A DNA stretch of 64,000 bases from positions 1,826,008-1,890,007 of the forward strand of contig OX639992.1 of assembly GCA_951828515.1 (NCBI GenBank). Direction: 5' to 3'. The notes beneath the pieces are model-generated. The model did not search any database, had not been told where the DNA came from, and was given only the letters and a program-made list of their open reading frames with translations. Of the stretch, positions 8,022 through 29,273 are shown piece by piece (the stretch's first letter is position 1; every line of letters begins with the position of its first letter). Source of the DNA: an uncultured Poribacteria bacterium. GTDB lineage: Bacteria > Poribacteria > WGA-4E > WGA-3G. A program made the position numbers and the translations under genes.

Positions 8022-9293
8022 TTACCACTGACCATGCACAGGGGTCTCACGTGCTTTCTCGAAAAGATCTGCCCATTCGTCAGTGCCATCGTCAAAGTTT
8101 AATTCGAGACGCGCGCCATCCACCTGTGCCTCACCACCGCCTGCATTGAAATAACTCAAACCATCACCGGACATGTGGATGCAACTGCCATCAGGATAAA
8201 CAGCGGTTTTGATGATACGCGGGACAGGATGAATCGTATAACCGTCAGCGTCTAACTTATCAGCAGGTACACGGAAGCGTTCAACTGCGTCTTCATCGAC
8301 TTCAACGCCTAACCCAGGCGCATCGGCAATCTTGTGGCATCCATCCGAGACTTGTATGGGGTGCGTGAGCAGATGGTCGCTGTAGAGATTAATACAGGTG
8401 ATTGCGGGCCATGTCGCATGTGTGAGTACACTCCCGAGATGTCCTGCCCAGGTTGTCGTCAAGCCGTTTCCAACGATCTGGAGCCAAAACGGCATATCTG
8501 CTGCTGCGCTGAGTTGCCCCTCACGCATCACCTGCGATTTGCCACCACCGATGACAAACCCTGTGCATACGTCCTCACGCACACAAGTGGTATAGGGAGG
8601 TGACCCGAAATGCATGGCGACCTGACACCCAACGGCTTGACGAATCTGCTTGTTTCCGTCAACATCGCTCTGCGGGATGGGAGTCTCAAACATCGCCACG
8701 TTTGGATGTGCAGCGAGTTTTTTCAGGATCGGGATAGCCGTTTCTGCGTCGCGCCACGAACTGTTCGGATCGAGGTCGAGTTTGAAGTCGGCTGGTACGT
8801 TTTCTGAGACTGCCTCTACCTGTGCGGTGATATCCCACCACGGACGCGGTTTATTTTTGAAACTGGTATAGCCGTTTTCCACGGCGTTAGCGGCTTCTGC
8901 TGCCCAGTTTTCAGGGGAGGAGTCGATACACCACCACGAAATTGGAACAGCTTCGCGACACTGCATGCCAAGAAGTTGGTAGATTGGAATCTCTAAAATT
9001 TTTCCGACGACATCAAAGAGTGCCATCTGTAAACCGGCACCAAGCGAATCGTCGTTCATAAGTTCGGCGGGACTTTGTCCAAGCACACGTTCAGCACTGG
9101 TATCACTGACCCGGGAATAGGTATAGTGGATGACGGTCTCGCCCCAACCGATATGTCCAGTATCGGTTGTAACCTTGCACAATTCAAGAAGCGACCAGTT
9201 GTAAACTGTTGATACGCTCTGGGTGGTAATTTGTTGTTGGCGCGGGGTGAAGGGGACATCTACAATCACACGTTCTACGTTCGTGACTTTCAT
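8022..9293 (-). CDS. enolase-superfamily enzyme (mandelate racemase/muconate lactonizing enzyme-like dehydratase)
   Basis: N-terminal KVTNVERVIVDVPF capping-domain start typical of MR/MLE/galactonate dehydratases, followed by a TIM-barrel region. The ATG at 9293 has a TAAGGAG RBS; the 27 codons further upstream overlap a REP hairpin. Confidence 0.6.
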   Translation of the reverse strand: MKVTNVERVIVDVPFTPRQQQITTQSVSTVYNWSLLELCKVTTDTGHIGWGETVIHYTYSRVSDTSAERVLGQSPAELMNDDSLGAGLQMALFDVVGKILEIPIYQLLGMQCREAVPISWWCIDSSPENWAAEAANAVENGYTSFKNKPRPWWDITAQVEAVSENVPADFKLDLDPNSSWRDAETAIPILKKLAAHPNVAMFETPIPQSDVDGNKQIRQAVGCQVAMHFGSPPYTTCVREDVCTGFVIGGGKSQVMREGQLSAAADMPFWLQIVGNGLTTTWAGHLGSVLTHATWPAITCINLYSDHLLTHPIQVSDGCHKIADAPGLGVEVDEDAVERFRVPADKLDADGYTIHPVPRIIKTAVYPDGSCIHMSGDGLSYFNAGGGEAQVDGARLELNFDDGTDEWADLFEKARETPVHGQW

Positions 9294-9309
9294 GGGTAGA
9301 CTCCTTATC

Positions 9310-9336
9310 GGCGAGGTCAGGAAACCTCGCCAGCGG
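9310..9336. repeat. REP-like hairpin GGCGAGGTCAGGAAACCTCGCCAGCGG
   Basis: Member of a family of at least 10 copies sharing GGCGAGGTT-loop-AACCTCGCC-AGCGG. Confidence 0.65.
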
Positions 9337-9479
9337 CGGTGGATAAGCATCGTGATCGGGAGATCGTTCCTACACAAACAAGGGTCGCGATTCGGAGATC
9401 GCTCCTACAGAAGAGAAAAATAAAAAGGGCGAGGGATTCATAAAACCTTCTCCCCCGCCCTATTGTATACCAATACATA

Positions 9480-10307
9480 CTAATACGCAACTTTAATTTC
9501 GCCCCAGAGGGTCGTGAGCTTGTCTTTGACATCGACATCAAAACCGTTTTTGTTTGTAACGAGAATGCTGTCGATCCGTCCCATTCCCCAACTTTCGTGC
9601 CAAACACCGACAGAACCGGCACCCTTGGTAGTGGCTTTGTCGGATTCAAGTATTGGGTCTCCGAGGTCATCGGAGGGTGCGAACAGGTCTTTGATTTCAT
9701 CAAGTTTCTTATACCAGACTTTAACGTTGTTGCCTTGGACCTCAACGCGTCCGAAATAAGCGACAGCATTGGTTTGATCGAGTCCAGCCCCTAAGCCGTG
9801 CGGTACACTGTCTATTTCCTTACCACCATTTTCACAACCGCACTGATCAAGGCATTGTCCGCTCGGACAACACCCGTCTTCCAGACTCATGAAAAGGACG
9901 GCCGCTGTCTCATTATAGCCAAAGACAACGAGATAGCCTTTATCGTCCCCTTTTCTACGGAATTGCAGACCGAAACTATCATCATCACCAAAGGAAAAGA
10001 CGGCTTGGACGATGCCGTCGGTAAAGTTTTTCACACCAGGCAGTTCTGTGTTACCAGAGATACCGCATCCCTCAGCGGTTTGCTTCATGGATCTTTTTCC
10101 ACCGATTTTGCCGCCTTCAAAATCATCCTCACCCCAGATGGTGCCCGCGTTTTCCGGTTTATAGTTTTTGACATTGTTCACATCAGCATTCGGTTTTGCG
10201 TCCTTGGAGCCGGGCTCAAAATCGGCGTAAAACACAACTTGACCGCTGGCGTGAAACGAAACAAGTAGACTCAAAACGAGGCTGAAAAGAAAAAAACGTG
10301 TCTTCAT
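9480..10307 (-). CDS. secreted hypothetical protein, paralog A (Cys-rich core DGCCPSGQCLDQCGCENGG)
   Basis: Signal peptide MKTRFFLFSLVLSLLVSFHASGQ. A GGAGGAG RBS precedes the ATG at 10307. It aligns over its full length with the adjacent paralog at 10564..11388. Confidence 0.55.
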   Translation of the reverse strand: MKTRFFLFSLVLSLLVSFHASGQVVFYADFEPGSKDAKPNADVNNVKNYKPENAGTIWGEDDFEGGKIGGKRSMKQTAEGCGISGNTELPGVKNFTDGIVQAVFSFGDDDSFGLQFRRKGDDKGYLVVFGYNETAAVLFMSLEDGCCPSGQCLDQCGCENGGKEIDSVPHGLGAGLDQTNAVAYFGRVEVQGNNVKVWYKKLDEIKDLFAPSDDLGDPILESDKATTKGAGSVGVWHESWGMGRIDSILVTNKNGFDVDVKDKLTTLWGEIKVAY

Positions 10308-15857: not shown

Positions 15858-18731
15858 TTAATTATCGCGCTGAAAACGGAATATCCCATTATGTTCTGTA
15901 CCGACGTAAAGTGTATTACGATCAACAGCAAGGGAGGTAACTGTGTATGGTATTTCTGGAGCAATTTGTTTCCAAGTGTTCGTTCGGCTATCTACTTGAT
16001 AAACCCCGCTGGCACATACACTGTAAAGGGTTGAGCCATCCGTCGCGATCTGATCCATAAGGAGTGGACACCCGTCAGTATCGGTGAGTGCATGCCAGGT
16101 TTCACCCTCGCGTGAACGCATCACTCCTGCGTCCGTTGAGATGTAGAGGGTTGAACCTACAAAGAGAATGTCTTTGTAGTAAGCAAACGGAAAGGCGAGG
16201 CTTTGGGTAATGTTCTTCCAAGTATTTCCACCATCCAGAGACCGGAAGAGGTCCCCCTCTCGTTTACCGGCATAGATGGTATCGTCCGAAGCGGCAAGAG
16301 CGAAACCTGTCTTAAGAGGTGAGATTTCTCCACCATCTTCCAAACCGGTGTGGTGCCACTCCGTCTCGCCGGGTCGCCACCTGAAAAGTTTCCGTCGGTG
16401 TTCCATAAAAACGGCTTCCCCGACGAGGGTAAAACTCCCGTTTGTTCTGTCTTCTGTCAGGAATAAGTTCTCGTCCCATAATTGTTCCGCTTCACGATCC
16501 CTGACGTTTGTTTCTCTGGCTTTTTGGAGCCTCTTCTGCAATTCAGTGTAGAGATCGTCTTCCTCGAAATCCGGCATACCTGGAACTGGTATCAGGGCAT
16601 CACTGCTAACGGGAAGGTAAAAAAGTTGCGTCCGATTACCGGGAACACTGCTGAGATGGAGAGTTGTATTGCTTGTCTGTATCTTTGGATAGACCAGAAG
16701 TTTACCTTCACTCTCCACGTTAAGGGTCTCCCAAGATTCACCACTGTTTTTTGATTTAATAATCTCTCCACCGGTGACTGCATAGAGAGCGTTTTCGACG
16801 GAACTTAGATTTTGAACATTGAAATTCGCGATCCCTGTTACAAAGGGATGCCATGTGTCCCCTCCATCCGTCGAGCGCGTTATTCCGCCGTAATAGGTTC
16901 TGTAAAAATTGTTTTCGTCCAACGCGATAGTAGGAGAAGCTCCAAATGCATGTCGGTCATTTCCAAGATACATCCACGTCTCACCGGCATCATAGGAGCA
17001 TAATATTCCACCAAAACTTATTAACAGAATCTTTTTCCCGATTGGGACGACTCTGACTGCGACTCCCATCTCAGGGGTATGCGGCGTAATATCGGTCCAT
17101 GAATCGCCGAGGTCGGTCGAATAGAAGACTTGGGCTTCAGGACCATGCCGTCGATTTATGCTCGTCCCGACGTAGAGCCTCTCCTCGGCAACTGCCAAGG
17201 ATTTAATACCGTGATCAGTCGGCACCGGCAATTTTTTCCAATTACCGGACAATCGGAAAAGCCCCCGACTCGTTCCGACAAAAAGCGTGTTATCAATGGC
17301 AAGCGCGTCCCGAATATGGAACTCGAAATCACCATCTTCCCGGACAATATCGGATCGCAAGACATGTCCTATGAATTCCCACTGCTTCCCAGCATCTTCG
17401 GAACGAAACACTTCGGTTCTGAGGACGAGGTACATCGTCATATCAGCATTCCCAGACTTGTGTTGCTGAGTGCCATCGGTAATCACCAATGCGACAGGAC
17501 GTCCCTCGGGGCGTGAGCCGAGAACACTCCAGGTTTTACCCCTATCCGTTGAGGCTAAAAGTTCATCGGATGTCAGGAGATAGAGGGTATCCCGGTATTC
17601 TGTCATGACCTTGCTGAATTCTCGCTTCGGACCGCTGGCACTGACAAGTGTCCACGCGTCTGTCTGTGGTGTGAATCGGTAGAAGCCGGGTTTCGCAACA
17701 GCATAGAGGGATTGGTCAGCGGCGAGAAAGAGTCCGGGATATGAAACCTCCCCTGTTCCGTTCGCTTGAATCCATTGCGGTTTCGCGGCGCGAGCGTCTG
17801 CCTCCTTGGGAGGCAAGGTAGCAAGCAAGTTGGGTCCCGGTTGTTGTCCGGCGCCTGTATTTTTGCCGAGCGTATCGGTGTTTCCGAATTGGTTTCTGAC
17901 ATCAGGCTTTAGTTTCAACGGAAGCACAACGGGTGCCTCAACGAATTCAATTGTCATCTCCGATGTTGCGTCTAAACTGTAAGGTTGCTGGAAACGATAC
18001 AGCGCACGTGTACCCACACCAATCATTAGAAGAATGAGAAACGTTGATGCGAAGGAAAACCCCCAGGGCACCCAAGGTTTACTTGCAGAAGGGGCAGTCG
18101 GCTGGAGACGAGCGATTTCTCGCATGACGTTCGCAGTCAGGGTCGACGGTGCTTGGAAAATACCGGAGACATCGTGGAGGAGGTGTTCTTGCGTTTTCAA
18201 TCGCTTGCGAGCCCGGTGGAGCCGACTTTTGATGGTGTTCGGGGATACACCCAAAAATTCACTAATCTTTTCACACGGCATCTCTGCGAGATAGTGCATC
18301 GTTACAACCGTGCGTTCGCTCTCTGGCAGTTTTTGGAGAAGACGCTTGACAAGGTCGCGCTGGTGCTCAACGTCTGCAGCTTCAGCACCTGTTGCCTCAT
18401 ACGCTGCATAGGAGAGTTCCGCCAGTTGGACCCCGGGCATCGCATCCAGAGATGTCGTTGGCTCCTGTTTCTTCCGCATCCACGCGATACACTGACGCGC
18501 CGCAATTACATAAAGCCACCCGAGAAAATGATACGGGGGTTTCAGGAGCGACAACTTTTTGTAAGCTTTCAGGAAAATATCTTGTGTGAGCTCCTGGGCT
18601 GTGTGAAAGTCGCCGATCTTCCGCCACACAAAGGTGTGGATCGGTTTCTGGTATCTGTTGACAAGCACGGTAAAAGCGTTGTCGTCTCCCTCTAAAACCC
18701 GCTGAATTAAGTCAAAATCATTGGTCTCCAT
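15858..18731 (-). CDS. ECF sigma factor fused to transmembrane anti-sigma-like segment and large BNR/Asp-box repeat (beta-propeller) extracytoplasmic domain
   Basis: N-terminal sigma-70 region 2 (DLIQRVLEGDDNAF...) and region 4 (ESERTVVTMHYLAEMPCEKISEFLGVSPNTIKSRLHRARKRL). One TM helix (WGFSFASTFLILLMIGVG). At least 8 Asp-box motifs S/TxDxGxTW (STDRGKTWS, SEDAGKQWE, STDLGDSWT, SYDAGETWM, STDGGDTWH, SKNSGESWE, SLDGGNTWK, SREGETWH). Confidence 0.75.
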   Translation of the reverse strand: METNDFDLIQRVLEGDDNAFTVLVNRYQKPIHTFVWRKIGDFHTAQELTQDIFLKAYKKLSLLKPPYHFLGWLYVIAARQCIAWMRKKQEPTTSLDAMPGVQLAELSYAAYEATGAEAADVEHQRDLVKRLLQKLPESERTVVTMHYLAEMPCEKISEFLGVSPNTIKSRLHRARKRLKTQEHLLHDVSGIFQAPSTLTANVMREIARLQPTAPSASKPWVPWGFSFASTFLILLMIGVGTRALYRFQQPYSLDATSEMTIEFVEAPVVLPLKLKPDVRNQFGNTDTLGKNTGAGQQPGPNLLATLPPKEADARAAKPQWIQANGTGEVSYPGLFLAADQSLYAVAKPGFYRFTPQTDAWTLVSASGPKREFSKVMTEYRDTLYLLTSDELLASTDRGKTWSVLGSRPEGRPVALVITDGTQQHKSGNADMTMYLVLRTEVFRSEDAGKQWEFIGHVLRSDIVREDGDFEFHIRDALAIDNTLFVGTSRGLFRLSGNWKKLPVPTDHGIKSLAVAEERLYVGTSINRRHGPEAQVFYSTDLGDSWTDITPHTPEMGVAVRVVPIGKKILLISFGGILCSYDAGETWMYLGNDRHAFGASPTIALDENNFYRTYYGGITRSTDGGDTWHPFVTGIANFNVQNLSSVENALYAVTGGEIIKSKNSGESWETLNVESEGKLLVYPKIQTSNTTLHLSSVPGNRTQLFYLPVSSDALIPVPGMPDFEEDDLYTELQKRLQKARETNVRDREAEQLWDENLFLTEDRTNGSFTLVGEAVFMEHRRKLFRWRPGETEWHHTGLEDGGEISPLKTGFALAASDDTIYAGKREGDLFRSLDGGNTWKNITQSLAFPFAYYKDILFVGSTLYISTDAGVMRSREGETWHALTDTDGCPLLMDQIATDGSTLYSVCASGVYQVDSRTNTWKQIAPEIPYTVTSLAVDRNTLYVGTEHNGIFRFQRDN

Positions 18732-19358: not shown

Positions 19359-19420
19359 AACCTCTTTGATTGAGAACTTTCCTTTATAGAATTATCCAAA
19401 TATTTTATTAGGCTTCATAT

Positions 19421-19569
19421 TGCGTAAAGCAGCAATATATTTCACCCAAAAATGCCTCGCAGTGAGAGTATTTCAGTTATTTAACCCCCTAAAGAATCAA
19501 CGGTATGAATGCCTTATGGCATTCCCCGCCCCTTATCAGGGGGACTTCAAGAGGAAGTGTGTAAGTCCT
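19421..19569. repeat. MITE-family member (right TIR TGTGTAAGTCCT intact; internal module shared with 33112 copy)
   Basis: TTAACCCCCTAAAG...CCCCTTATCAGGGGGACTTCAAGAGGAAGTGTGTAAGTCCT parallels the 33112..33231 element. It overlaps the last codons of the nucleotidyltransferase gene. Confidence 0.45.
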
Positions 19570-19573
19570 AATC

Positions 19574-20251
19574 CTAAAAAAGTTGCTGGGCTGCCTGGAG
19601 GCGTTCGGGAGAGCCGATATCTATCCAATCGGGGTCGGTTTTAAGAACATGAAGGTTTTCTAATTTCGGAAGGACATCGTAGGAGAGAGAAAACACGTCG
19701 CTATCGGGAAACGATCGAGCAATTTTGCTGTTGAAGAGGTAGACACCGGCATTGATATACCCACTTTGGTATGTGGTAGGTTTTTCCAGGAATGCCGTAA
19801 TCTGCCCTGTATCCGAAGAGATGATTTCACCATAAGGACGGGTGTCATCCACCCAAACAGATAGCAGTAAACCTGCCATGTCCTCTCGAAATGTAGATAC
19901 CATTTCGTTGAGCGAGAAATCTCGCCACAGGACATCCCCGTTCAACACAAAGAACGGGGAACTCTGTATGTACCGCATTGCGTTTTTGATAGCACCCCCG
20001 GTGTCAAGTTTTTTATCTTCTTTACAATAGCGAATGGAAATGCCATTGTAAGACTCTCCGATGGTGTATTGGAGCACATCATGGAGGTGCCCAGTCGCGA
20101 GGATGAGTTCTTGGACTCCAACTTCCTTCAGGAATTCACACTGCCATTGTAGAATAGAACGGTTTTTGATTTTTAGGAGAAGTTTGGGGGTATGTTTGGC
20201 GGTGGCCCCCAGGCGAGTCGCATGTCCACCGCATAAAATGATTGCTTGCAT
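19574..20251 (-). CDS. sugar-phosphate nucleotidyltransferase (NDP-sugar pyrophosphorylase family)
   Basis: MQAIILCGGHATRLG N-terminal nucleotide-binding motif; 225 aa. Confidence 0.75.
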   Translation of the reverse strand: MQAIILCGGHATRLGATAKHTPKLLLKIKNRSILQWQCEFLKEVGVQELILATGHLHDVLQYTIGESYNGISIRYCKEDKKLDTGGAIKNAMRYIQSSPFFVLNGDVLWRDFSLNEMVSTFREDMAGLLLSVWVDDTRPYGEIISSDTGQITAFLEKPTTYQSGYINAGVYLFNSKIARSFPDSDVFSLSYDVLPKLENLHVLKTDPDWIDIGSPERLQAAQQLF

Positions 20252-20269
20252 AAATCTATCACCCTTGGT

Positions 20270-20296
20270 GGCGAGGTTAGGAAACCTCGCCAGCGG
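20270..20296. repeat. REP-like hairpin GGCGAGGTTAGGAAACCTCGCCAGCGG
   Basis: Same family; sits between the cytochrome-fusion gene and the nucleotidyltransferase gene. Confidence 0.65.
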
Positions 20297-20443
20297 TTGA
20301 ATGGTCCAGAATCTAAAGCGGTGTTGGCTTCGGGTTCTCTGAGGGTCCAGGCATCGGTTTGGGATCTGGAATGGGCTTCACGATTCCCATTTTCCAACTC
20401 ATAATTTTTCCTCCTTTCTAAAAAATGCATCTGTTTGCGGATT

Positions 20444-22294
20444 TTATTGACACGGTGTGCCGCTTGCCCGCAACAGCTGGTTTGCTCGAAATTGGTGGTT
20501 ATCAACTAAAATCGTAGGAGAGGCTCTAATGCCCAATTCCGCGGCACGTTTTATGTTCTCTCGGAAAAGTTGTTCTGCTTCCGGACTGTCAAATAGTGCT
20601 TGAATCTTCGCGACATCAATGCCGTATTTCTCAGCACAGTCCTCCCAACTCTTGTCCAGTTTTTTGCCGCGGCACAAAATATAGTCGAGATACTTATCAG
20701 GATACTCTCTCGCTATCAGTAACTGCCGAATGTTCTCTGCCACTTCGGGGTAGCCGTGTAGACTGGTGAACGGTGTTACCTCTTGGAGAGAAACAGTCTC
20801 TTTCTCTTGGGCGATAAAGCGGAGTTTAAAGTCAATTTTATCGCCAAACTCCTTCACGATCGGAATAATTTTCTCCTCCGCCTGAACACCGAATGGACAG
20901 TAACTCATTACAAAAAGTTCCAAGGTCGGTTTTCCCATTCGGGAAACCCGAGATGTCAATAATTCCTCAAGGTTCATCGGTTGGCGGCTGTGGTCCACAT
21001 CTTTGGTGTGGAGTGCTACCACTTCTGCAAACCCAGGCGAATGTTTTGTGTCGTGGCACGTAAGACAGAGCGATGTCTCAGCGGCGCGTCGGATATTCTC
21101 TTTCTTCGGATTGCCGACGTGTTGTTTGCCGGGACCGTGGCACGTTTCACATTGCACACCCTTAAAGGTCGATGTCTCATCACCAATCTGAAAACCTGTC
21201 TGGTAACCGAAGCCGGTCGTATGACAGGAAACACAATTCGGATTGAAGTATCGCTCTTTTTTCAACAGCGTTTCAAAAGCGAAAGCATGCCGTGTTGCAG
21301 ACCACTGGAGATATTCTTGCTCATGGCACCGCTGACAGGCAGTCGCTGATACATATCCGTTTTGCGGATCTTGTTCCAGTGGTTGTTCGGCAAAAAGGGG
21401 TTTGTGTTCAGACGATTGGGCAACCTCGCGGTAAAAATCGGTGAGCAACTGGCGCACGGATTCATCTTCTGGGACATCCCCGGTCAGTGCAAGTTGTGCG
21501 GCATGGTGTTGGGTTAGTTCACCGTCTGCATTCACCCAGAGTGCCAAAAAACCGAGTGTTTTCCCCTCAGATGTTGAACCTGCCCAAATCGGTGCGTTCA
21601 TCTGTTGAGTGGGTTCCACCTCTTCAGGACTGATGATGACATCGATATTAGGATGTTCCGTTGAGTTGGGTGTCCCTAAGGCAATCATCAGATTTGTATT
21701 TGGAAACTCTCGCTCAGTTGAAACGGGAACAACGGCAATTGAGAGTTCACCAGCAGTTTGAAGAATAGACGGTTGAGCGTAGGCGTGATTCTCATCAAGA
21801 AATGGGAATGATGCCGCAGCACGTCGCTCGATGAGATACGCATCTCCATAATTGAGGTCGTTTTGACTCAGCGCGATAGCGTCGTATCCCATTATGGACA
21901 TCGCTTTTAGATTTACCTGACACCTCTGTGTATCTATATCCTCGGTGCCATCGAAAATATCTCCAGCGTCAACCAAGAGCGTTGGAACGCCTTGTTGGCG
22001 GATTTGTGATATAAGGAAAGCACGCCTTGGCAAGCCACCGGCTTGTTCTTGATAGCATCCACACGGTTCCAGATGGCTTTTCGTGGCACCTGTATAGAGT
22101 ATCACGACAGAAGGTGGATCTTCACCTTCAAAGAGTGCGATAACGCTTTCAAAGGTTTCACCAATCGGTTGCCGTGCCTGTTGCTTGATTTCCTGAATCT
22201 GTTGCTGTCTGCGGGATTCCGCCCAATGTGTATATAGTGGTGGGACCCCGATAACAAGCGTTAGTAGAATTAAAGTGACGATAGCAAGCTTCAT
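20444..22294 (-). CDS. multidomain secreted/membrane-anchored protein: degenerate 5'-nucleotidase/metallophosphatase-like domain + tetraheme cytochrome c + C-terminal CPFG domain
   Basis: N-terminal hydrophobic anchor. VVILYTGATKSHLE...LLVDAGDIFDG...SQNDLN follows the 5'-nucleotidase pattern (ILHTNDHHS...LLDAGDQFQG...GNHEFD) with the His/Asp ligands replaced. Four CxxCH motifs (CQRCH, CVSCH, CETCH, CLTCH). C-terminal ~200 aa has SYCPFG. Its start is 2 nt from the upstream gene stop. Confidence 0.6.
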   Translation of the reverse strand: MKLAIVTLILLTLVIGVPPLYTHWAESRRQQQIQEIKQQARQPIGETFESVIALFEGEDPPSVVILYTGATKSHLEPCGCYQEQAGGLPRRAFLISQIRQQGVPTLLVDAGDIFDGTEDIDTQRCQVNLKAMSIMGYDAIALSQNDLNYGDAYLIERRAAASFPFLDENHAYAQPSILQTAGELSIAVVPVSTEREFPNTNLMIALGTPNSTEHPNIDVIISPEEVEPTQQMNAPIWAGSTSEGKTLGFLALWVNADGELTQHHAAQLALTGDVPEDESVRQLLTDFYREVAQSSEHKPLFAEQPLEQDPQNGYVSATACQRCHEQEYLQWSATRHAFAFETLLKKERYFNPNCVSCHTTGFGYQTGFQIGDETSTFKGVQCETCHGPGKQHVGNPKKENIRRAAETSLCLTCHDTKHSPGFAEVVALHTKDVDHSRQPMNLEELLTSRVSRMGKPTLELFVMSYCPFGVQAEEKIIPIVKEFGDKIDFKLRFIAQEKETVSLQEVTPFTSLHGYPEVAENIRQLLIAREYPDKYLDYILCRGKKLDKSWEDCAEKYGIDVAKIQALFDSPEAEQLFRENIKRAAELGIRASPTILVDNHQFRANQLLRASGTPCQ

Positions 22295-22296
22295 TG

Positions 22297-23445
22297 TTAA
22301 AAAAACCTATTTATAAGGGAGATTATCCCGAGGTGAAAGGGACCTTTACAGAGCACTGTTAACAATCCGCCGAATGTAATAACAGGTGCAAAACGAATCG
22401 CGGGTTGAATCCGAATCTTGTTATCAAAGTGTGCAAACGCGTTTTCTTTAACTAAACTCTGCAATTCACAGATTGTTTCGGCGGAAAGCCCGACTGGATC
22501 AGTTGTTATGAGCTCGGCACCTTGGCGTTCATTTCTATCCATCTGTTTCTCATAATGGGCACGACCATCCTCGCCTTCCTTTTTGACGATGTGTTCACTG
22601 AGGATCATCCCTACTTGGAGGTGTGACACTTCAATTATTCGATCAAATGCCACACTCGCTAACTGAAGCACGAGCTGCTTCGCTACCACAAAAATGAGTA
22701 GGTAGAAGCCTACAGAAAAGGCAATTCCTACCAGCAGCAGCCCGATGGAGGGGGCAGATTTCAGCATCAACCACCCGCTGAAAAATAAGATGACAACAAC
22801 AGCAGTTGGCGTTTTCAGCAAGGGACCCAAAACCTTTTGCATACCGGCAAAAACGAACAGGACTAATACGAGTCGCATCACTTGATCCAACTGCCAACCC
22901 AAACTATTGAAAAGGTAGGTAAGTCCTGCTCCAATAAGGATAAACTGAAGCAAACCATAGAGTTTCTCTAACAGGGAATCCCGATCAACGGAGGATTTGA
23001 TGAGTTGAATGAGCACTGCCCCTGTCCCCCGGACCCTGATTAACTTTACAATGAGGTAGCCTATTGCCACGATTGTGTAGGGAATGATGATATTGAGTGC
23101 CAATACTACCGGTGGAAACATTGATATCTCTTGTATAGGACCAAACCACCATGAAGGTAGTATTAAACAAAGCCCCCAGAATAACTTAGAGTCGCCGGGT
23201 GAAAAGACACCAAACGTATAGAGTCCGATGGCGATCGCACCACTAACCACAAATAGGATTGCAGCGTTCAAAGGAGTCGTAAGCCCCATAAAACAACCCG
23301 TTATTTGACCGAGGGTGCCTGCGTAAATGAGGCACATTGAACAGAGATTTGGTATTTTGTGGGTCTTTATGTCTGCATAACTTGCATAACCACAGAAGGT
23401 AAGAGCTATAGATAGAAGAACAGTCTCATAAATGAATGTGTTCAC
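22297..23445 (-). CDS. A24-family prepilin peptidase-like membrane protein with long C-terminal extension
   Basis: Both catalytic Asp motifs of A24/TadV/CpaA peptidases are present: ADIKTHKIPN (D-x5-IPN) and FSPGDSKLF (GxGD-KL). The ORF is 382 aa against ~170 aa for CpaA, with extra TM helices and a soluble C-terminal region. GTG start with a GGAAG RBS. Confidence 0.6.
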   Translation of the reverse strand: MNTFIYETVLLSIALTFCGYASYADIKTHKIPNLCSMCLIYAGTLGQITGCFMGLTTPLNAAILFVVSGAIAIGLYTFGVFSPGDSKLFWGLCLILPSWWFGPIQEISMFPPVVLALNIIIPYTIVAIGYLIVKLIRVRGTGAVLIQLIKSSVDRDSLLEKLYGLLQFILIGAGLTYLFNSLGWQLDQVMRLVLVLFVFAGMQKVLGPLLKTPTAVVVILFFSGWLMLKSAPSIGLLLVGIAFSVGFYLLIFVVAKQLVLQLASVAFDRIIEVSHLQVGMILSEHIVKKEGEDGRAHYEKQMDRNERQGAELITTDPVGLSAETICELQSLVKENAFAHFDNKIRIQPAIRFAPVITFGGLLTVLCKGPFHLGIISLINRFF

Positions 23446-23595
23446 AAAAACTTCCTATGATAATAGGAGGGTATTAGTAAACAATGATGGGTGCTTGTGT
23501 TTCCTTAATAAAATAAATTGTACCATCATTGATTTCAAAATACCCGCCATGTCTTTTACACCAAAAGATAGAACTTTAATGCTTACCTTTGATCA

Positions 23596-23892
23596 TCAAC
23601 TCGAGCGACACACATTTATCACTTCGCGGATAACCCTTGTGACAAAGTCGTTTTCAACTGGATCCCAAACCCAGTCTGTACCTACAGCGACTACCTTTTC
23701 TACATACTCATTCCCAGGCCCACAATCACCATCGTTATTGCACTCATCTGCATACGCTGATGAATTAAACACGATAGCTTGGACAAGCATGAGCCCTCCT
23801 GTAGCAATACTAAGAGTCAATGGTGTTTTTATACCTACACGGCCTTCCTCAGAATTGAGAAAGTCTTGAATTTTCGACTTGAGATTTTTCAT
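23596..23892 (-). CDS. small protein, paralog 1: conserved N-terminal leader (MKNLKSKIQDFLNSEEGRVGIKTPL), hydrophobic segment, Cys-rich C-terminus
   Basis: 98 aa. The first ~45 aa are ~80% identical to 25235..25522, and the shared C-terminal motif is C-[ND]-N-D-x-x-C-x-P-G-N. The upstream 60 bp is conserved between the two copies. Confidence 0.55.
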   Translation of the reverse strand: MKNLKSKIQDFLNSEEGRVGIKTPLTLSIATGGLMLVQAIVFNSSAYADECNNDGDCGPGNEYVEKVVAVGTDWVWDPVENDFVTRVIREVINVCRSS

Positions 23893-23986
23893 TCAGTTTT
23901 TCTTTTTTCTTTATACCGGCTCTCACACCCGGTCAGATTGACTCAACCTAGACTGTTTTGCAGGTTGATGCCTTCATAAAAGCACA

Positions 23987-24988
23987 CTATGGTTGTTTTA
24001 GATATCCCCACGACGTTGTCAGCAAATGAACTTGTGGGTGTACAGGCAACGCTCGTGGATCAAACCAACTCCCGAGGCTATTCACCCCTTGATGTGTCAG
24101 TTGCTTTGTCGATCGACGTGTGATATCAACTCTGAAGAGGTGTCTCTGCTCGTCAACCTTCTTTTCATAGAGGAGTTCAGTGCCATCAGGGCTCCACAGA
24201 GGGTGTCTCGCATATCCACCCGCTCTGGAGACGATCCGTTTCCTCTGTGTCCCATCGGGTCTCATAATATGAATCGTGGCCATATCGACTCGATCCAGAA
24301 GCCATGGAGCATCGGAAAAGGCGATCCATTCCGCGTCTGGAGACCATGAAGGGTACTTGTGACGTAAATCACCCAGAGACACTTTCCTCCGGTTCTGCCC
24401 TTCTGGCGAGATGAAAATGAGGGGGTAGCCTTCTCTTTCTTGTTGTGCGAAATTCGCTGCTGCAAAAGAGAAAACGATTCTCTCACCTTCTGGGGACCAC
24501 GCAGGTTGCCCGCCAAACTCCCCTGCGATAGCAAGCGGTTTTTCGTTTTTTCCATCAATGTCAGCTATGTAAATTGCCTCATCATGGTATCGGAAGTAAA
24601 CAATCCCTTTGCCATCAGGGCTCCATGCCGGTGCTGATCTGTCCGCTGCACTTCTAAAAACTCGTTTTACATTCTGACCATCCGCATCCATAAGGAACAC
24701 ATCTCGCTGACCGTCTCGATGAGACACAAAGAGAATATGTTCCCCTGTCGGTGAAAAGACGGGGGCATAATCGCGAGACAAGTGTTGTGTCAATTGGGTC
24801 ACTTCACTGCCATCGGGGTTCATGAGATAGATGTCCAGATTCCCTGTTATATCGGAGGCGAAGACAATCTTCGCTGTTTTCGGGGCTTTTGCCCAAGTCA
24901 GATCCAAAACACTGAAAAAAAACGATACGCAGAAAACGTAGAACATCAAAAGGGTAGGTTTCTTCATAAGTTTCTTTTCTGATAGCAA
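23987..24988 (-). CDS. TolB-like periplasmic beta-propeller protein
   Basis: Signal peptide, then repeated PxWSPDG blades (APVFSPTGEH, APAWSPDGKG, QPAWSPEGER, YPSWSPDAEW, HPLWSPDGTE). Start is either a TTG at 24988 with an AGGAG RBS or the ATG at 24967. Confidence 0.7.
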   Translation of the reverse strand: MLSEKKLMKKPTLLMFYVFCVSFFFSVLDLTWAKAPKTAKIVFASDITGNLDIYLMNPDGSEVTQLTQHLSRDYAPVFSPTGEHILFVSHRDGQRDVFLMDADGQNVKRVFRSAADRSAPAWSPDGKGIVYFRYHDEAIYIADIDGKNEKPLAIAGEFGGQPAWSPEGERIVFSFAAANFAQQEREGYPLIFISPEGQNRRKVSLGDLRHKYPSWSPDAEWIAFSDAPWLLDRVDMATIHIMRPDGTQRKRIVSRAGGYARHPLWSPDGTELLYEKKVDEQRHLFRVDITRRSTKQLTHQGVNSLGSWFDPRALPVHPQVHLLTTSWGYLKQP

Positions 24989-25234
24989 ACTATCACACTC
25001 CTAAAAATGGCATCGTCAGTGAGAGCCCGTGAAGTGAACACAGGGACCTTGCAGAGATACCACTGAGATCGTTTTTCCGTAAAAAAGACAAATAAAGTTA
25101 TCTTGACACAATACAACTTTATTTTTCAATCACCTGTAGGAACTTGGATAAAGTGGCTTGGCGAGATTTTTACAGCGGGCTTTCGCGCCACTTTTTGCCT
25201 CTCGCCAAGTCCGGGATGTTAGTTTCTAACATCG

Positions 25235-25522
25235 TTATTGGCAAAATGTATGTACTTCAACGATGTCTTCCACAACATGTCCTCGCATCGGACAAAAGAT
25301 CTCTTGAGTCCCAACAACAATTGTGACCGTTTGGCAGGTCTGGTTTCCAGGACATTGGGAGTCATTATCGCAAACTCTCCCAGCATCCGCATCGGGGGCG
25401 GTCATCGCTTGTGCAAGCAGAAGTCCACCTGTGGCGACACCGAGGGCTAGGGGTGTTTTCACGCCAACACGCCCTTCTTCGGAAGTCAGAAAGTCACTAA
25501 TACGCGACTTAAGATTTTTCAT
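25235..25522 (-). CDS. small protein, paralog 2: conserved N-terminal leader (MKNLKSRISDFLTSEEGRVGVKTPL), hydrophobic segment, Cys-rich C-terminus
   Basis: 95 aa, with an AAGGAG RBS and 5 Cys in the C-terminal half. Paralogous to 23596..23892. Confidence 0.55.
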   Translation of the reverse strand: MKNLKSRISDFLTSEEGRVGVKTPLALGVATGGLLLAQAMTAPDADAGRVCDNDSQCPGNQTCQTVTIVVGTQEIFCPMRGHVVEDIVEVHTFCQ

Positions 25523-25572
25523 TTGGTTTCTCCTTTCTTTTTACCGGGGATCTCAGACCCGGCAGGATTGAC

Positions 25573-27207
25573 TTAACCGGAACGGTTAAGCCCATTTCCA
25601 GCAAGAGGTACCTCGCGCTGGAAGTGCTTGAAAACAGATTCAACTTCGGCAGGGGTATGGTGTTTGGACAATACTTCTGCTAAAGCGTTTTCAAGGCGTT
25701 CAAATCGGTTTGTCTCCTGCCGATAGACACTCGGATAAGCCATTCCGGTTCTCGGGTCATAGTATCGGCAGAACAGGGGCTGACACAGGGATAGAGGTGT
25801 TGATGATTGGCAGCGTGTATTGGCACGCGCTGAACCTTGCTTAAACAGCCTCACAATCTCCTGAGCGGTGCGTTCCCACGTATATTTTGCTACGAATCCT
25901 TTTGCTACCTCCCTATACTTTTCGCATCTTTCCGTGTCACTTAGTAATTGGTTTATAGTTTCAGATAGATGCTGCATTGGAACCTCCAAATCGTTTCCTT
26001 TTCCAGCAGGACACTGGACAAGTACTCCCGCACCCTCAATTTCCGGCGGTAGTCCATATTTTGAAATCACAACTGCAGGGGTCCCGTATGCCATTGCTTC
26101 CAAAACCAATGAGGGGGAAGTCCCTGGTACAGCAGGGAAACAAACGACATCCAATGCTTGGAAGAATATGGGCAATACTGATCGCGTGCTTTCGTCACTT
26201 GCGTTGAAGATCACCAAGTTGCTCAGCGGATTCCGATATGCGTCAGCCAAAATTGAGTCGTAGACAAAGAAAACAAGGTGTGGGTTTGCAGTCGCGATAT
26301 CCAAGATATTCCGCATTCCAGCGTTTGGTTCAAATCCCGAAATAATACCCACCACGGGCCTCTGTGCAAACAATGGATTATCTGTAAGCACGGCAGCGTG
26401 TTGCTTGGCTAATTCTTTCCCGATAGGTTCAACGACATTGATGCCCTCTGAAATTGTGTGCACCCCTGCAGAGTCCACCCCGAATTCTGAGAGCCAGTCG
26501 GTAAGCCATGTAGCTTTGGACAGAATTAAATCTGTGGATTTCTGTGCCGTGTACGAATTCAAAGCAGATTCAAGGATTAAGGCTTGCATTCGTCTGTCAC
26601 TCTCTAAACAGCGAAGGACCGGCAGATTTTTAGAATAGTATAGGATATCGTGACTTGGAAATTGTCCAAGCAGTAAGATACCATCGTAGCCATCCATTGC
26701 ATACCAAGGGAACCAGAAATTTGAATGCTTCTCAATTATATCGCGATTTGATACGAACCCTCCAAAATCATGTCCCGGCTCCCCATTGATGTTGAAAGTT
26801 TCTAATTCCGCCAGTTTTGAGAGTGCTACCAATAGATGGAACCGGTTCTCGTTTGTTACAGGGTCCTGAACACTTTTTTCTGGAACAAACTGAAAGGGAA
26901 CAAGTAATTTGAGTCTCCTATCTGATTGAGAAGGTATGTAAGTGCTCCAAGTAGGACTTGACAACTGTCCCCGTTGACTGAGCCGTTGCAACCGTTCAAT
27001 GCCTTCAAAAATCTGCTCTATTTTGAATTTCGATCTTAACCTCTCAACAGTTGCATAAAGTGTTTCAGTGAGATTTTGATCAAGGAGTTCCCATTCCACA
27101 TCGTTAATTTCAACAATAGTATCAGATTCTAAGTCAGCGGCGTATTTTCGCCCCGACTGCTCAAATTTGCGGTGTTGATGCACTCGATATCTTGTTTCTA
27201 CCTTCAT
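25573..27207 (-). CDS. GT4-family (GT-B) glycosyltransferase with N-terminal PqqD/RRE-like domain
   Basis: C-terminal PAVPGTSPSLVLEAMAYGTPAVV is the GT4 E-x7-E region. The N-terminal ~90 aa (YAADLESDTIVEINDVEWELLD...IFEGIERLQRLSQRGQL) follows the PqqD pattern v.eLN..a..iw.l.dG..t..ei...l...y...eI..Dv..fl..L...GlL. Confidence 0.7.
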   Translation of the reverse strand: MKVETRYRVHQHRKFEQSGRKYAADLESDTIVEINDVEWELLDQNLTETLYATVERLRSKFKIEQIFEGIERLQRLSQRGQLSSPTWSTYIPSQSDRRLKLLVPFQFVPEKSVQDPVTNENRFHLLVALSKLAELETFNINGEPGHDFGGFVSNRDIIEKHSNFWFPWYAMDGYDGILLLGQFPSHDILYYSKNLPVLRCLESDRRMQALILESALNSYTAQKSTDLILSKATWLTDWLSEFGVDSAGVHTISEGINVVEPIGKELAKQHAAVLTDNPLFAQRPVVGIISGFEPNAGMRNILDIATANPHLVFFVYDSILADAYRNPLSNLVIFNASDESTRSVLPIFFQALDVVCFPAVPGTSPSLVLEAMAYGTPAVVISKYGLPPEIEGAGVLVQCPAGKGNDLEVPMQHLSETINQLLSDTERCEKYREVAKGFVAKYTWERTAQEIVRLFKQGSARANTRCQSSTPLSLCQPLFCRYYDPRTGMAYPSVYRQETNRFERLENALAEVLSKHHTPAEVESVFKHFQREVPLAGNGLNRSG

Positions 27208-27216
27208 TTTACAACC

Positions 27217-28926
27217 TCACGCTGTCGCTTGAATAAAGCCGTAGCATCTCGCAAGTATCGCCTTCGCGGTATCCTCATCTTCAATGAGTTCACTAAGTAT
27301 TGTTTCCACTTCCCTGACGGTATGTTCTTTGAGAAGGCTAATAACCAATCCGTCCTCAACTTTCTGGTTAAAAATTCCGTAGGGATTTACAAGCATTTCA
27401 TATCGCGAATTCATATTGAGTACTATGGACTTCTGTTCTAACCGTTTCTGATGGGTGTTCCAATAAGATGAAAAAAAAGTGTTGAGTCGATTTTCACAGA
27501 ACAATTTCTTTTTCCAATTGAGTTCCGAGAACAAGTCAAGGATACGTTGCGCTGTTTTCTTCCAAGTGAACGTTTGTGCGCGATTCAGTGCCTTTTGAGC
27601 GTAGGCTGCTCGTAGGGAATTGTCGTTTAGCAACAGATTTACCCCTTCCGAGAAGTCAAGTGGAGAAGCATAACTGGCAATGCTCGTGATGTCCTGTTCA
27701 AAGGGAACGGTAGGAACGATCAAACCCGCATCTCCCACGACAGAAGGAACACCATCAAAATCGGAGATGACCGGTGGTACACCGCACGCCATTGCTTCAA
27801 GCACTGTTAATCCGAATGTCTCCTCGCCAGACACGGAAGGGAAACAATATACATCAAAGGCGTTGTAAATCAGCGGTAATTTTTCACGATCATAGAATCC
27901 GATATAGATAAGGTTCTCGGGAATTTTTCGCTGTGCGTATCTACCCTCATTCTGACCCGCCTGCAAAAAGAGAAGATGTGGGTTGAGTTCTGCCAACTTC
28001 AGGTAGATAGATGCCCCCTTTTCAGGTTGGAAACGAGAGAGGTAACCCACGGTGGGCATTGTTTTAATTCGTTCATCTCCTACGCGTTTCGCGAGTTCAT
28101 TCTTTGCCTGTTGTTTATCCATTGGACGGAATAAGTTTAAATCTACACCATTTGCGACAGTATTGAAAACACCTTTATCCCAGACGAACTGGGAATAAAA
28201 TTCGCCAACAGAATCTGTAGGTGCCGTGAAGGCATCATAATCCCGTAGAGCAGTATAGTGTAACAATACAGAACGCACGTTTGTACCACCATGTCCACCC
28301 ACCGAATGCACTTGCATTAGAATCGGAGGGAGTTCGGGACATCGGAATAGTGGGATGAATCCTTCTTGGCTACGGTCAGAGTGGATTGTAAGGATACCTT
28401 CATATTGCGAAGCAATCTTTTCGGGTATACGCACCATGTCGAGCAGACTCAAATCCACTTCGTAGAAATTCTCGCCAAGTTTTCTGTTTTGTGTGCCAGC
28501 AAAGTGAAGTACTGCCTGGTCTTTCAGAGCCTGAATAGTATAAGCGAGAGCAACATGGGTCCCAGCACTGGTATTTTCTATGTCTGAAACAGCATCGGGA
28601 GCCAACCCCTGGACCACCAATAAAAAATGTGGACAATCTCCTTTTTTGAAAAATAATACGTCGGATTTCTCACCACGATTAAGGAGTAAACCCCGTCCCA
28701 CATATTCGATCAATGTCTCAAATGCTTCTTCAATATCACCATCACTGTAAGCGGTTTTTAATGTCTCTATAATTTCCTCTGTCGTCCGTGTCTCCGCGAG
28801 TTTCAGAACATCAGCAATCGCAGCAGAGATTTCGACGAGACTTGCTTTATCCAAGTCTGCGGCGTAAAGTCCACCATCTTTTTCAAAAATATGGAGTTGA
28901 TGAAGAGGTTTCGGAAAATCAAGCAT
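27217..28926 (-). CDS. GT4-family (GT-B) glycosyltransferase with N-terminal PqqD/RRE-like domain (paralog)
   Basis: PSVSGEETFGLTVLEAMACGVPPVISD is the GT4 motif. N-terminal LYAADLDKASLVEISAAIADVLKLAE.RTTEEIIETLKTAYSDGDIEEAFETLIEYVGRGLL is PqqD-like. Start uncertain (ATG at 28926 or TTG at 28950). Only 10 bp separate it from the downstream paralog. Confidence 0.7.
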   Translation of the reverse strand: MLDFPKPLHQLHIFEKDGGLYAADLDKASLVEISAAIADVLKLAETRTTEEIIETLKTAYSDGDIEEAFETLIEYVGRGLLLNRGEKSDVLFFKKGDCPHFLLVVQGLAPDAVSDIENTSAGTHVALAYTIQALKDQAVLHFAGTQNRKLGENFYEVDLSLLDMVRIPEKIASQYEGILTIHSDRSQEGFIPLFRCPELPPILMQVHSVGGHGGTNVRSVLLHYTALRDYDAFTAPTDSVGEFYSQFVWDKGVFNTVANGVDLNLFRPMDKQQAKNELAKRVGDERIKTMPTVGYLSRFQPEKGASIYLKLAELNPHLLFLQAGQNEGRYAQRKIPENLIYIGFYDREKLPLIYNAFDVYCFPSVSGEETFGLTVLEAMACGVPPVISDFDGVPSVVGDAGLIVPTVPFEQDITSIASYASPLDFSEGVNLLLNDNSLRAAYAQKALNRAQTFTWKKTAQRILDLFSELNWKKKLFCENRLNTFFSSYWNTHQKRLEQKSIVLNMNSRYEMLVNPYGIFNQKVEDGLVISLLKEHTVREVETILSELIEDEDTAKAILARCYGFIQATA

Positions 28927-29273
28927 ATTTTTTGTCTCTATATACAACAAACTGAATCAACACATTATTTTATTTCAACTCGAAGAATGCCAATTCTTGA
29001 AATAATGCTCTGTTACAACGACAGATATCTCTAACGAATTTTTTACGTATCACTCAGCATTCTCTATGTTGCAATTCCCGTGCCAATTGGAAGAACCCAC
29101 GCCGTTCGTGAATTTTAGGAAAATGGGACTACGCAAATTTTTCGCAGTCGGCAAATTTTGCATACCGAATCTCTGCAGATATTGCAGAGTTCCAAAAGGC
29201 AGTGGCACCGGCGCGCGATATATCGGGGACGAACACTATGGTAAACTTTAGAATTAACTGTACACTCTGCACC

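Follow-up and report, generated by a model that had tools for sequence, protein, structure and literature searches.

Within a 64,000-nucleotide stretch of DNA from an uncultured Poribacteria bacterium (GenBank assembly GCA_951828515.1, contig OX639992.1, positions 1,826,008 to 1,890,007 of the forward strand; hereafter the window), eight co-directional genes on the minus strand appear, on balance, to encode a dedicated maturation and export system for small, secreted, disulfide-rich proteins, with a logic like that of the ribosomally synthesised peptides that are modified after translation (RiPPs). The cluster comprises two paralogous glycosyltransferases of family GT4 (GT1 and GT2), each with an N-terminal RiPP recognition element (RRE), two small precursor proteins of 95 and 98 amino acids (aa), a periplasmic beta-propeller, a membrane peptidase of the A24 family, a periplasmic haem/thioredoxin fusion and a sugar-1-phosphate nucleotidyltransferase (Table 1). 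An initial annotation, made from the letters alone, had placed these eight open reading frames (ORFs) in tight succession at 19574-28950. Their coordinates and order were borne out by an ORF check, as was the packing, with gaps of 9 bp between GT1 and GT2 and of 2 bp between the peptidase and fusion genes. Domains were assigned by Pfam and NCBIfam scans of the eight window proteins, and hydropathy analysis places the products on either side of the membrane. No membrane segment is predicted for GT1, GT2 or the nucleotidyltransferase, which are placed in the cytoplasm (a single hydropathy peak in GT2, 1.64 at residues 344-362, is read as a strand of the Rossmann fold), the A24 protein is multi-pass, and the propeller and the fusion both carry N-terminal signals, the hydrophobic segment of the propeller spanning residues 12-30.

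The same gene set recurs well beyond the window. In a degenerate-pattern scan that took a single genome for each species, members of the small-protein family turned up in 25 loci, of which 24 are titled Poribacteria and the other 'uncultured bacterium', and mapping the eight window proteins onto these loci revealed a recurring order, GT1-GT2-[small protein-propeller]n-A24-haem fusion-nucleotidyltransferase. Each locus contains between one and about six small protein/propeller pairs and one cytochrome fusion, and in many of them the nucleotidyltransferase stands at the end of the cluster. For 46 of the 66 small-protein genes counted, the next gene encodes a propeller. Since the flanks are unrelated between loci (an ECF sigma factor in one, insertion sequence (IS) elements in another), the clustering is not due to chance. 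The search for this neighbourhood in related genomes, which the initial annotation had proposed as a check, thus found it widely conserved, with the small ORFs both retained and co-localised. For all of the cluster proteins the nearest relatives with a named source are from Candidatus Poribacteria.

A representative search with a full-length glycosyltransferase profile (570 positions) further recovered the core gene set in six divergent loci (L030-L035), representing at least four divergent metagenome versions. Gene order is rearranged in L030, while L031, from a TARA sample, carries a GHMP kinase. Peptidase_A24 matches, unmarked in the precomputed annotation, are present in L031, L032 and L034. 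Kelch propellers stand in place of the PD40 type in L032/L033, where the second glycosyltransferase-like protein is fused to a methyltransferase dependent on S-adenosylmethionine (SAM), and both propeller types are found together in L034/L035 (L032/L033 10001-12592 and 14212-15222; L034 13751-14899). It is therefore the propeller fold, rather than one propeller family, that goes with the system. The divergent small proteins read [FL]-[IL]-x-x-E-x-G, followed by 4-6 residues with K/R, a hydrophobic stretch, AxA and a Cys-rich core and, judged from these sequences, the features invariant across all versions are the glycine of E-x-G and the AxA motif.

The small proteins have the layout of leader-bearing precursors. 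The two window copies are 47% identical to each other, and the statistics that follow cover 64 distinct members of the family. A leader of ~17-20 residues ending in E-x-G is followed by a basic patch, an 18-residue hydrophobic segment, an AxA motif and a variable core of 20-70 residues. The leader is nearly invariant at F, S-E-E-G, [RK]-V-G and K, and the hydrophobic segment is itself unusually conserved (P-L-x-x-G-x-A...L-L-A-Q-A), such that mean pairwise identity is 0.69 in the leader, 0.62 in the hydrophobic segment and 0.16 in the core. The hydropathy of this segment (1.5-1.7 over 19 residues) lies in the range of signal peptides. AxA is present in 60 of the 64 proteins, mostly 0-3 residues before the first Cys, and the cores contain six Cys (32 proteins) or four (24 proteins), with few odd counts and a spacing of C-x4-6-C-x3-6-C. 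Comparison of the 95-aa gene with its ortholog in the locus L001 gave a dN/dS of 0.145 overall, 0.06 in the leader and 0.24 in the core, at a dS of ~1. Together with the 64 members, this value upholds the earlier view of the small ORFs as coding, conserved and co-localised genes with a near-invariant leader. Two details of that view needed amending: the proposed motif C-[ND]-N-D-x-x-C-x-P-G-N fits the 98-aa protein but the 95-aa protein lacks the x before P, and the 98-aa protein contains only three Cys, the 95-aa core having five.

The only consistent family match to these proteins was the N-terminal model of HxsA3, which recognises 29 of 31 members, with a best E-value of 8e-5 for the 98-aa protein at 22 bits against a cut-off of 65. 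HxsA, whose N-terminus is signal-peptide-like, receives its modification from radical SAM enzymes in the cytoplasm, is then processed N-terminally in a non-canonical way and goes to the periplasm, where it is an effector (PMC13128918). Beyond the leader, the parallel with this HXS system (HxsA, the radical SAM proteins HxsB/HxsC, and HxsD) would lie in cytoplasmic modification, non-canonical N-terminal processing and periplasmic action, all three of which are features of HxsA that we propose for the present proteins. His-Xaa-Ser repeats, radical SAM genes and HxsD are all missing from the cluster, whose proposed modifying enzymes are glycosyltransferases instead. PADLOC defence models match none of the eight window proteins, and nothing points to a role in defence.

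Nearly all of the small-protein genes are immediately preceded by an element of ~85 nucleotides (nt) consisting of two hairpins and then a ribosome-binding site. RNAalifold predicts both hairpins, and in an alignment of 36 distinct sequences 92% of cells pair, compared with 81% in shuffles and 18-58% in controls in which the motif was slid. Twelve of the 14 pairs change on both sides, a level reached by none of 500 shuffles, and the presence of G-U pairs on the sense strand suggests an RNA, not a DNA, element. The covariance model (R1) finds 69 copies in 517 kb, two in the window and 67 in the loci L001-L028; every copy lies on the cluster strand, and nearly every one runs up to the start codon of a small protein. 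The model finds no copy in the divergent loci L030 or L031. Rfam has no match in 19400-29200 at E<=1. The motif may be a cis-regulatory or an mRNA-processing element.

In the arrays, tblastn additionally detects short fragments of the GT2 C-terminus (residues ~499-531) or of the fusion C-terminus (residues ~586-616) just upstream of small-protein genes, in L006, L010-L012, L019 and L021-L024 (for example, L006 9805-9903 and L011 10240-10332). The GT2-type fragments, and the conserved 'AGNG[LF]' tail of GT2 itself, are explained by the overlap of the 5' hairpin with the end of the preceding gene. The fusion-type fragments are probably due to the same overlap, and duplication of the cassettes appears to have included this junction.

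Sequence profiles and structural modelling indicate that both glycosyltransferases are RRE-GT4 fusions whose N-termini are true RREs of the peptide-binding type. The PqqD-like character assigned to these N-termini in the initial annotation was invisible to a single-sequence Pfam scan of the full-length proteins (no PqqD match at E<0.1) but became clear with a family profile and with isolated domains. For the profile, 38 N-terminal domains were taken from the loci, of which 30 were aligned. Compared with PDB sequences it gave one strong match, to residues 6-80 of CteB (5wgg; E 4.9e-12), with PqqD (3g2b) at E 0.64. When the 30 isolated domains were scanned, the N-terminus of not_ScfB, a ScfB-related radical SAM/SPASM maturase, matched 28 (best E 3.6e-9), the SCIFF maturase 20 and Pfam PqqD 15 (best E 7.7e-5), with further weak matches to CcpM, RumMC, PqqD and MftB. 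A homolog search with the 119-aa N-domain returned only seven short fragments. In the AlphaFold2 (AF2) model of GT1 (predicted local distance difference test score, pLDDT, 79), residues 11-77 form three strands (11-16, 19-24 and 29-33) and then three helices (35-43, 49-56 and 62-77), with block-mean pLDDT values of 76-91; this is the topology expected of an RRE winged helix-turn-helix. The RRE of CteB binds the leader of CteA as an added beta-strand (PMC6231123). In CteB, the maturase of the SCIFF peptide thermocellin, and in other radical SAM/SPASM maturases, this homologous N-terminal RRE precedes a radical SAM/SPASM domain, whereas the catalytic domain here is GT4 and the precursors are not SCIFF peptides.

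The relationship between GT1 and GT2 extends over their full length, including ~90 N-terminal residues and the C-terminal extension, and the RRE is conserved in both. Orthologs of GT1 are 569 aa long, which makes the ATG at 28926 a more probable start than the TTG at 28950. Both proteins score above the Pfam cut-off for Glycos_transf_1 (26.4 bits). Foldseek comparison of the GT1 model returned MshA, PimA, BshA and GlgM as top matches (E 1e-18 to 1e-12), consistent with a GT-B fold, and the modelled GT1 core superposes on the retaining GT4 enzymes MshA, PimA and BshA. Of 23 GT1 orthologs, 20 retain the EX7E motif (G-E-E-x6-L-E); in three it was not located. The equivalent motif of GT2 was located in 18 of 22 orthologs, and in these 18 it reads PGT[PS]xSxVLE, with the first Glu replaced; because this residue is missing GT2 may be a non-catalytic or altered partner, perhaps one that holds the substrate. 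GT2-type relatives often have no Pfam glycosyltransferase match at all, and one is fused to a SAM methyltransferase. In L001, a chromosome-level assembly, GT2 is split (8351-9909; 144 + 361 aa), either by an assembly frameshift or by recent pseudogenisation; it is intact, at 531 aa, in L002/L003 (3079-4674), the small proteins of which are identical to those of L001.

By analogy, GT1 and GT2 are reminiscent of catalytic/non-catalytic GT4 pairs such as GtfA/GtfB. In the accessory Sec system these GT4-type paralogs, one catalytic and one a degenerate substrate-binding protein, glycosylate serine-rich repeat adhesins with an extended signal peptide before export. A weak match to the GtfA model (E 0.004) adds to the resemblance. 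The cluster differs in having no SecA2/SecY2 and no serine-rich repeats, and recognition here would be via the fused RRE. The C-terminal domain shared by the two paralogs has an invariant H-T-x-x-E motif, with no PDB sequence match and no Foldseek match at E<=0.001. In the full-length model it looked like a second RRE (beta-beta-beta-alpha-alpha-alpha), an idea that was dropped when the isolated domain modelled as a beta-hairpin and three helices.

The A24-type peptidase of the initial annotation proved to be an obligate member of the cluster: it is always present, the models Peptidase_A24 and Arc_PepC match all nine orthologs tested (best Peptidase_A24 E 4.5e-6), and no ortholog departs from either of the two catalytic Asp motifs, D25 (Y-x-D-[IL]-K) and D85 (F-S-P-G-D-S-K). 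In the second of these the first Gly of GxGD is replaced by Ser. The protein resembles the prepilin and preflagellin peptidases (PilD, TadV/CpaA and FlaK/PibD) in being a polytopic, probable A24 protease with two conserved Asp and Arc_PepC. Like class III signal peptides, its candidate substrates, the small proteins, begin with a charged extension and have both a conserved Gly and a hydrophobic segment.

The 616-aa fusion protein matches NF041198, an UshA-like (seleno)protein family, at 220 bits against a curated cut-off of 275, and contains a Cytochrome_C554 region and a C-terminal DsbA-like domain that is extra to the NF041198 model. The window copy has an N-terminal signal anchor, four CxxCH motifs and CPFG. 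HLEPCGCY and all four CxxCH are found in 22 of 22 orthologs and CP[FY]G in 21 of 22, and the conservation of PCGC and CPFG suggests an unusual thiol/haem redox relay. At residues 76-80 the protein has PCGC where the NF041198 family is named for PCGU, with selenocysteine, and the CPFG at residues 466-469 contains a single Cys. For the nucleotidyltransferase the best NCBIfam matches are mannose-1-phosphate and heptose-1-phosphate guanylyltransferases, all below cut-off.

Table 1. Genes, domains and RNA motifs of the cluster, with positions in the window.
Feature	Position	Strand	Basis
GT1: RRE, GT4 (GT-B) glycosyltransferase and C-terminal domain	27217..28950	-	Glycos_transf_1 84 bits
RRE (PqqD-like) domain of GT1	28672..28926	-	profile match to CteB, AF2 topology
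C-terminal domain of GT1, ~90 aa, beta-hairpin and three helices	27220..27495	-	alignment; isolated AF2 model, pLDDT 72.5
GT2: paralogous RRE and degenerate GT4	25573..27207	-	Glycos_transf_1 39 bits; 26% identity to GT1 over full length
RRE of GT2	26923-27207	-	paralogy to GT1 RRE
C-terminal domain of GT2, same family as that of GT1	25576-25800	-	alignment with GT1
Structured RNA motif (two hairpins and ribosome-binding site) preceding the 95-aa gene and overlapping the GT2 end with its 5' part	25520..25603	-	covariance model R1, 61.3 bits, E 1.3e-13
Small precursor protein 1, 95 aa: leader, hydrophobic segment, AxA, 5-Cys core	25235..25522	-	family alignment
Periplasmic PD40/TolB-like beta-propeller with N-terminal signal peptide	23987..24988	-	PD40 86 bits, TolB 155 bits
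RNA motif preceding the 98-aa gene, the weaker of the two copies	23894..23982	-	R1 30.2 bits, E 7.6e-5
Small precursor protein 2, 98 aa: same leader as the 95-aa protein, 3-Cys core	23596..23892	-	family alignment
Probable A24 aspartyl peptidase of archaeal type, in the membrane: A24 domain, additional membrane segments and Arc_PepC	22297..23445	-	domain matches, invariant Asp motifs
Periplasmic fusion: UshA-like (PCGC), tetraheme cytochrome c554-like, DsbA-like thioredoxin (CP[FY]G)	20444..22294	-	Pfam/NCBIfam
Sugar-1-phosphate nucleotidyltransferase, putative sugar donor supply	19574..20251	-	NTP_transferase 107 bits

We therefore favour a model in which the cluster matures and exports the small proteins in a series of steps. 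In the cytoplasm, the RRE domains of both GT4 paralogs would bind the small-protein leader, and GT1, with GT2 as its partner, would transfer a sugar from the NDP-sugar made by the adjacent nucleotidyltransferase. The hydrophobic segment would bring the precursor to, or into, the membrane, where the archaeal-type A24 peptidase, working from the cytoplasmic face, would cut off the leader at the conserved Gly; the A24 family has one general requirement, a Gly at -1. Release of the core, probably at AxA, would take place on the outer side, and its oxidative folding would be helped by the periplasmic PCGC/tetraheme/thioredoxin fusion, plausibly with electrons passing from thiols to haem. Each core would then act with the beta-propeller encoded directly downstream. 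As end functions, a symbiosis factor, a toxin/immunity pair and an enzyme subunit are all candidates.

Several points weigh against parts of this model. No Ser, Thr or Asn column is conserved in the core, for which reason a conserved glycosylation acceptor there was dropped, and most cores are even in Cys and so offer no obvious free Cys for S-glycosylation, which was likewise dropped as a general rule. A chain glycosylated in the cytoplasm would have to cross the membrane. The leader is unlike classical prepilin and class III motifs, with no Glu+5, no K/R at -2 and 5-6 polar residues after the invariant Gly, and release might not need the A24 step, given the conserved AxA. The window A24 protein itself falls just below the Peptidase_A24 cut-off (26.0 bits, E 1.3e-5, versus 26.5) with a weak Arc_PepC match, and a profile of the A24 proteins matched no PDB sequence, and hence no solved A24 structure, even at E 10. 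Finally, the thioredoxin domain of the fusion is not a classical DsbA, having only one Cys in CPFG.

The end function of the products could be read in other ways. We consider it unlikely that modular redox complexes of the periplasm, resembling quinohemoprotein amine dehydrogenase (QHNDH), contain the small proteins as subunits, each lying between its cognate propeller and the shared multiheme protein. This idea concerns end function and is compatible with the maturation model; alternative small-protein/propeller pairs would then provide alternative specificities. The beta subunit of QHNDH is a propeller. A 9-kDa Cys-rich gamma subunit with a leader of 28 residues is the cytoplasmic substrate of a radical SAM enzyme that binds this leader, and loses the leader before export, and the complex also contains a dihaem cytochrome alpha subunit and the beta subunit of ~37 kDa (PMC7876137). 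In QHNDH biogenesis (QhpA-G; PMC7876137), as would be the case for the present cluster, a small Cys-rich subunit bearing a leader is served by a leader-binding cytoplasmic modifier and a dedicated leader protease, and the exported subunit is assembled with cytochrome c and propeller subunits. The frequent small-protein/propeller pairing beside a single cytochrome fusion per locus is in keeping with such complexes, as are the recurrence of the propeller fold as Kelch in the distant versions and an RRE of the radical SAM/SPASM maturase type (with a weak QhpD-family match in 2 of the 30 domains). However, QHNDH gamma subunits are conserved whereas the present cores are variable and have no conserved Trp, Asp or Glu cofactor pattern. 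The thioethers and cysteine tryptophylquinone (CTQ) of QHNDH are made by radical SAM and flavoprotein enzymes, its leader is removed by a subtilisin-like protease and its export is by an ATP-binding cassette (ABC) transporter; here, NCBIfam scans gave no QhpA, QhpB or QhpC match, the cluster holds no radical SAM gene, and no sequence homology of the partner proteins was found. Quite unlikely, in our judgement, is that the products are secreted glycosylated bacteriocin-like or toxin peptides made by the logic of glycocins, with the propeller as immunity protein or receptor decoy and the arrays as the outcome of an arms race. The sublancin cluster has the order sunA-sunT-bdbA-sunS-bdbB plus sunI, and its parts (precursor, glycosyltransferase, leader peptidase, oxidoreductases and immunity) are paralleled by the gene logic here: a leader-bearing ribosomal precursor (SunA), a dedicated glycosyltransferase (SunS), leader removal coupled to export (SunT), dedicated thiol-disulfide oxidoreductases (BdbA/BdbB), and a small product with two or more disulfides. 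Variable disulfide-rich cores in tandem cassettes, their weak matches to defensin-like, late-nodulin and toxin families, and the IS elements flanking one locus also fit. On the other hand, purifying selection acts on orthologous cores, the cluster has the look of a stable trait of the genus or phylum, PADLOC gave no match, and a soluble periplasmic propeller is not known as an immunity protein. The differences from glycocins are also considerable. The glycosyltransferases here are GT4/GT-B enzymes with a fused RRE, not leader-independent family 2/GT-A enzymes of the SunS type, and the glycosylation is putative. No ABC exporter or C39 gene, and no double-glycine/C39 logic, is found in the cluster, the peptidase being A24 and the redox partner a haem-thioredoxin fusion. 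The Cys spacing is C-x4-6-C-x3-6-C versus nested C-x6-C, and a sugar-nucleotide synthase and propeller partners are present.

The initial annotation had also offered a pathway like that for Flp or type IV pilins, with glycosylated pilin-like substrates. In this reading, or in one based on archaeal class III signal peptides, the subunits would be cleaved by A24 and anchored or polymerised through a hydrophobic N-terminus. This is now very unlikely and is the least supported of the specific end-function readings. The ever-present A24 protein with both catalytic Asp and an archaeal Arc_PepC architecture would suit it, as would the invariant Gly before the hydrophobic segment and the 'FLxSEEG' of the leader, which we take to resemble the 'FLxDExG' before the Flp cleavage site. 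Yet no Flp_Fap, N_methyl or other pilin model matched any of 31 members at E<=1 in Pfam or NCBIfam. By inspection against the classical cleavage motifs, EY is missing along with Glu+5, and the residues separating the Gly from the hydrophobic stretch are polar or basic. That stretch has a hydropathy of only 1.5-1.7 and is followed by the conserved AxA, and the cores are Cys-rich globules and not pilin heads. Assembly ATPase, platform and secretin genes are absent from the called genes of the ~30 loci examined. Least probable of all is an ordinary cluster for a cell-envelope glycan or glycolipid, with unrelated neighbours and with RRE-like domains that are vestigial or bind something else. GT4 and NDP-sugar synthesis genes are indeed typical of polysaccharide loci, JGI and NCBI annotate the glycosyltransferases as cell-wall biosynthesis or family 4 proteins, and the closest structures (MshA, PimA and BshA) are GT4s that act on small molecules or lipids. 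But the small proteins, A24 peptidase, haem fusion and propellers travel with the RRE-glycosyltransferase pair across divergent lineages and rearranged gene orders, the RRE is retained in both paralogs, and no flippase, polymerase or lipid-carrier transferase is present.

Returning to the favoured maturation model, the cluster would represent leader-guided maturation by a new set of enzymes and a new type of peptidase. More tentatively, and with less confidence than we place in the model itself, it may define a new class in which RRE-GT4 glycosylation, A24 as leader peptidase, one-to-one docking with propellers beside a shared haem/thioredoxin protein, and RNA-controlled precursor expression are combined. 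The initial annotation overstated the novelty of the RRE-glycosyltransferase fusions in calling them outside the textbook: they were listed among unexplained architectures by RRE-Finder (PMC7470986) and flagged again, for PF00535, in 2025 (PMC12710340). They are uncharacterised in those surveys, and we found no characterisation in the searchable literature. Its claim that the gene combination is undescribed stands, with no description found there either. A review of RiPP leader proteases makes no mention of A24 or prepilin peptidases, and no paper in the searchable literature contains 'prepilin peptidase', 'RiPP' and 'leader peptide' together. Further features that the initial annotation did not contain are the one-to-one small-protein/propeller pairing in variable arrays, the degenerate GT2 motif, the HxsA3-like leader and the upstream RNA motif.

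If the model is correct, leader-guided, RRE-dependent modification would extend to GT4 glycosyltransferases, and the A24 prepilin-peptidase family would gain a class of non-pilin substrates. On the more tentative reading of a new class, A24 would act as a leader peptidase for the first time outside pilin and archaellin biogenesis, and the docked proteins would form interchangeable modules, in the periplasm or at the surface, that sponge symbionts may use toward the host. The cassette of eight genes is compact and testable, and its short precursors with an invariant leader and naturally varied cores suit heterologous reconstitution and peptide glycoengineering. The cluster is among the most conserved uncharacterised clusters of Poribacteria, which are dominant uncultured symbionts of sponges, and its products may plausibly face the host or the community. 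The upstream motif is in its own right a new candidate cis-regulatory RNA with good covariation support. The srp proteusin RiPPs of sponge symbionts were also considered and proved unrelated.

In the window, the cluster is flanked by an extracytoplasmic function (ECF) sigma/BNR fusion, a nuclease fragment and a dehydrogenase. The first of these, directly downstream, is a 957-aa protein (15858-18731, minus strand) in which ECF sigma regions 2 and 4 are followed by a membrane segment and Sortilin/BNR/Ycf48-like repeats. An ECF sigma gene adjoins the cluster in L001 too, and the flanks in other genomes differ.

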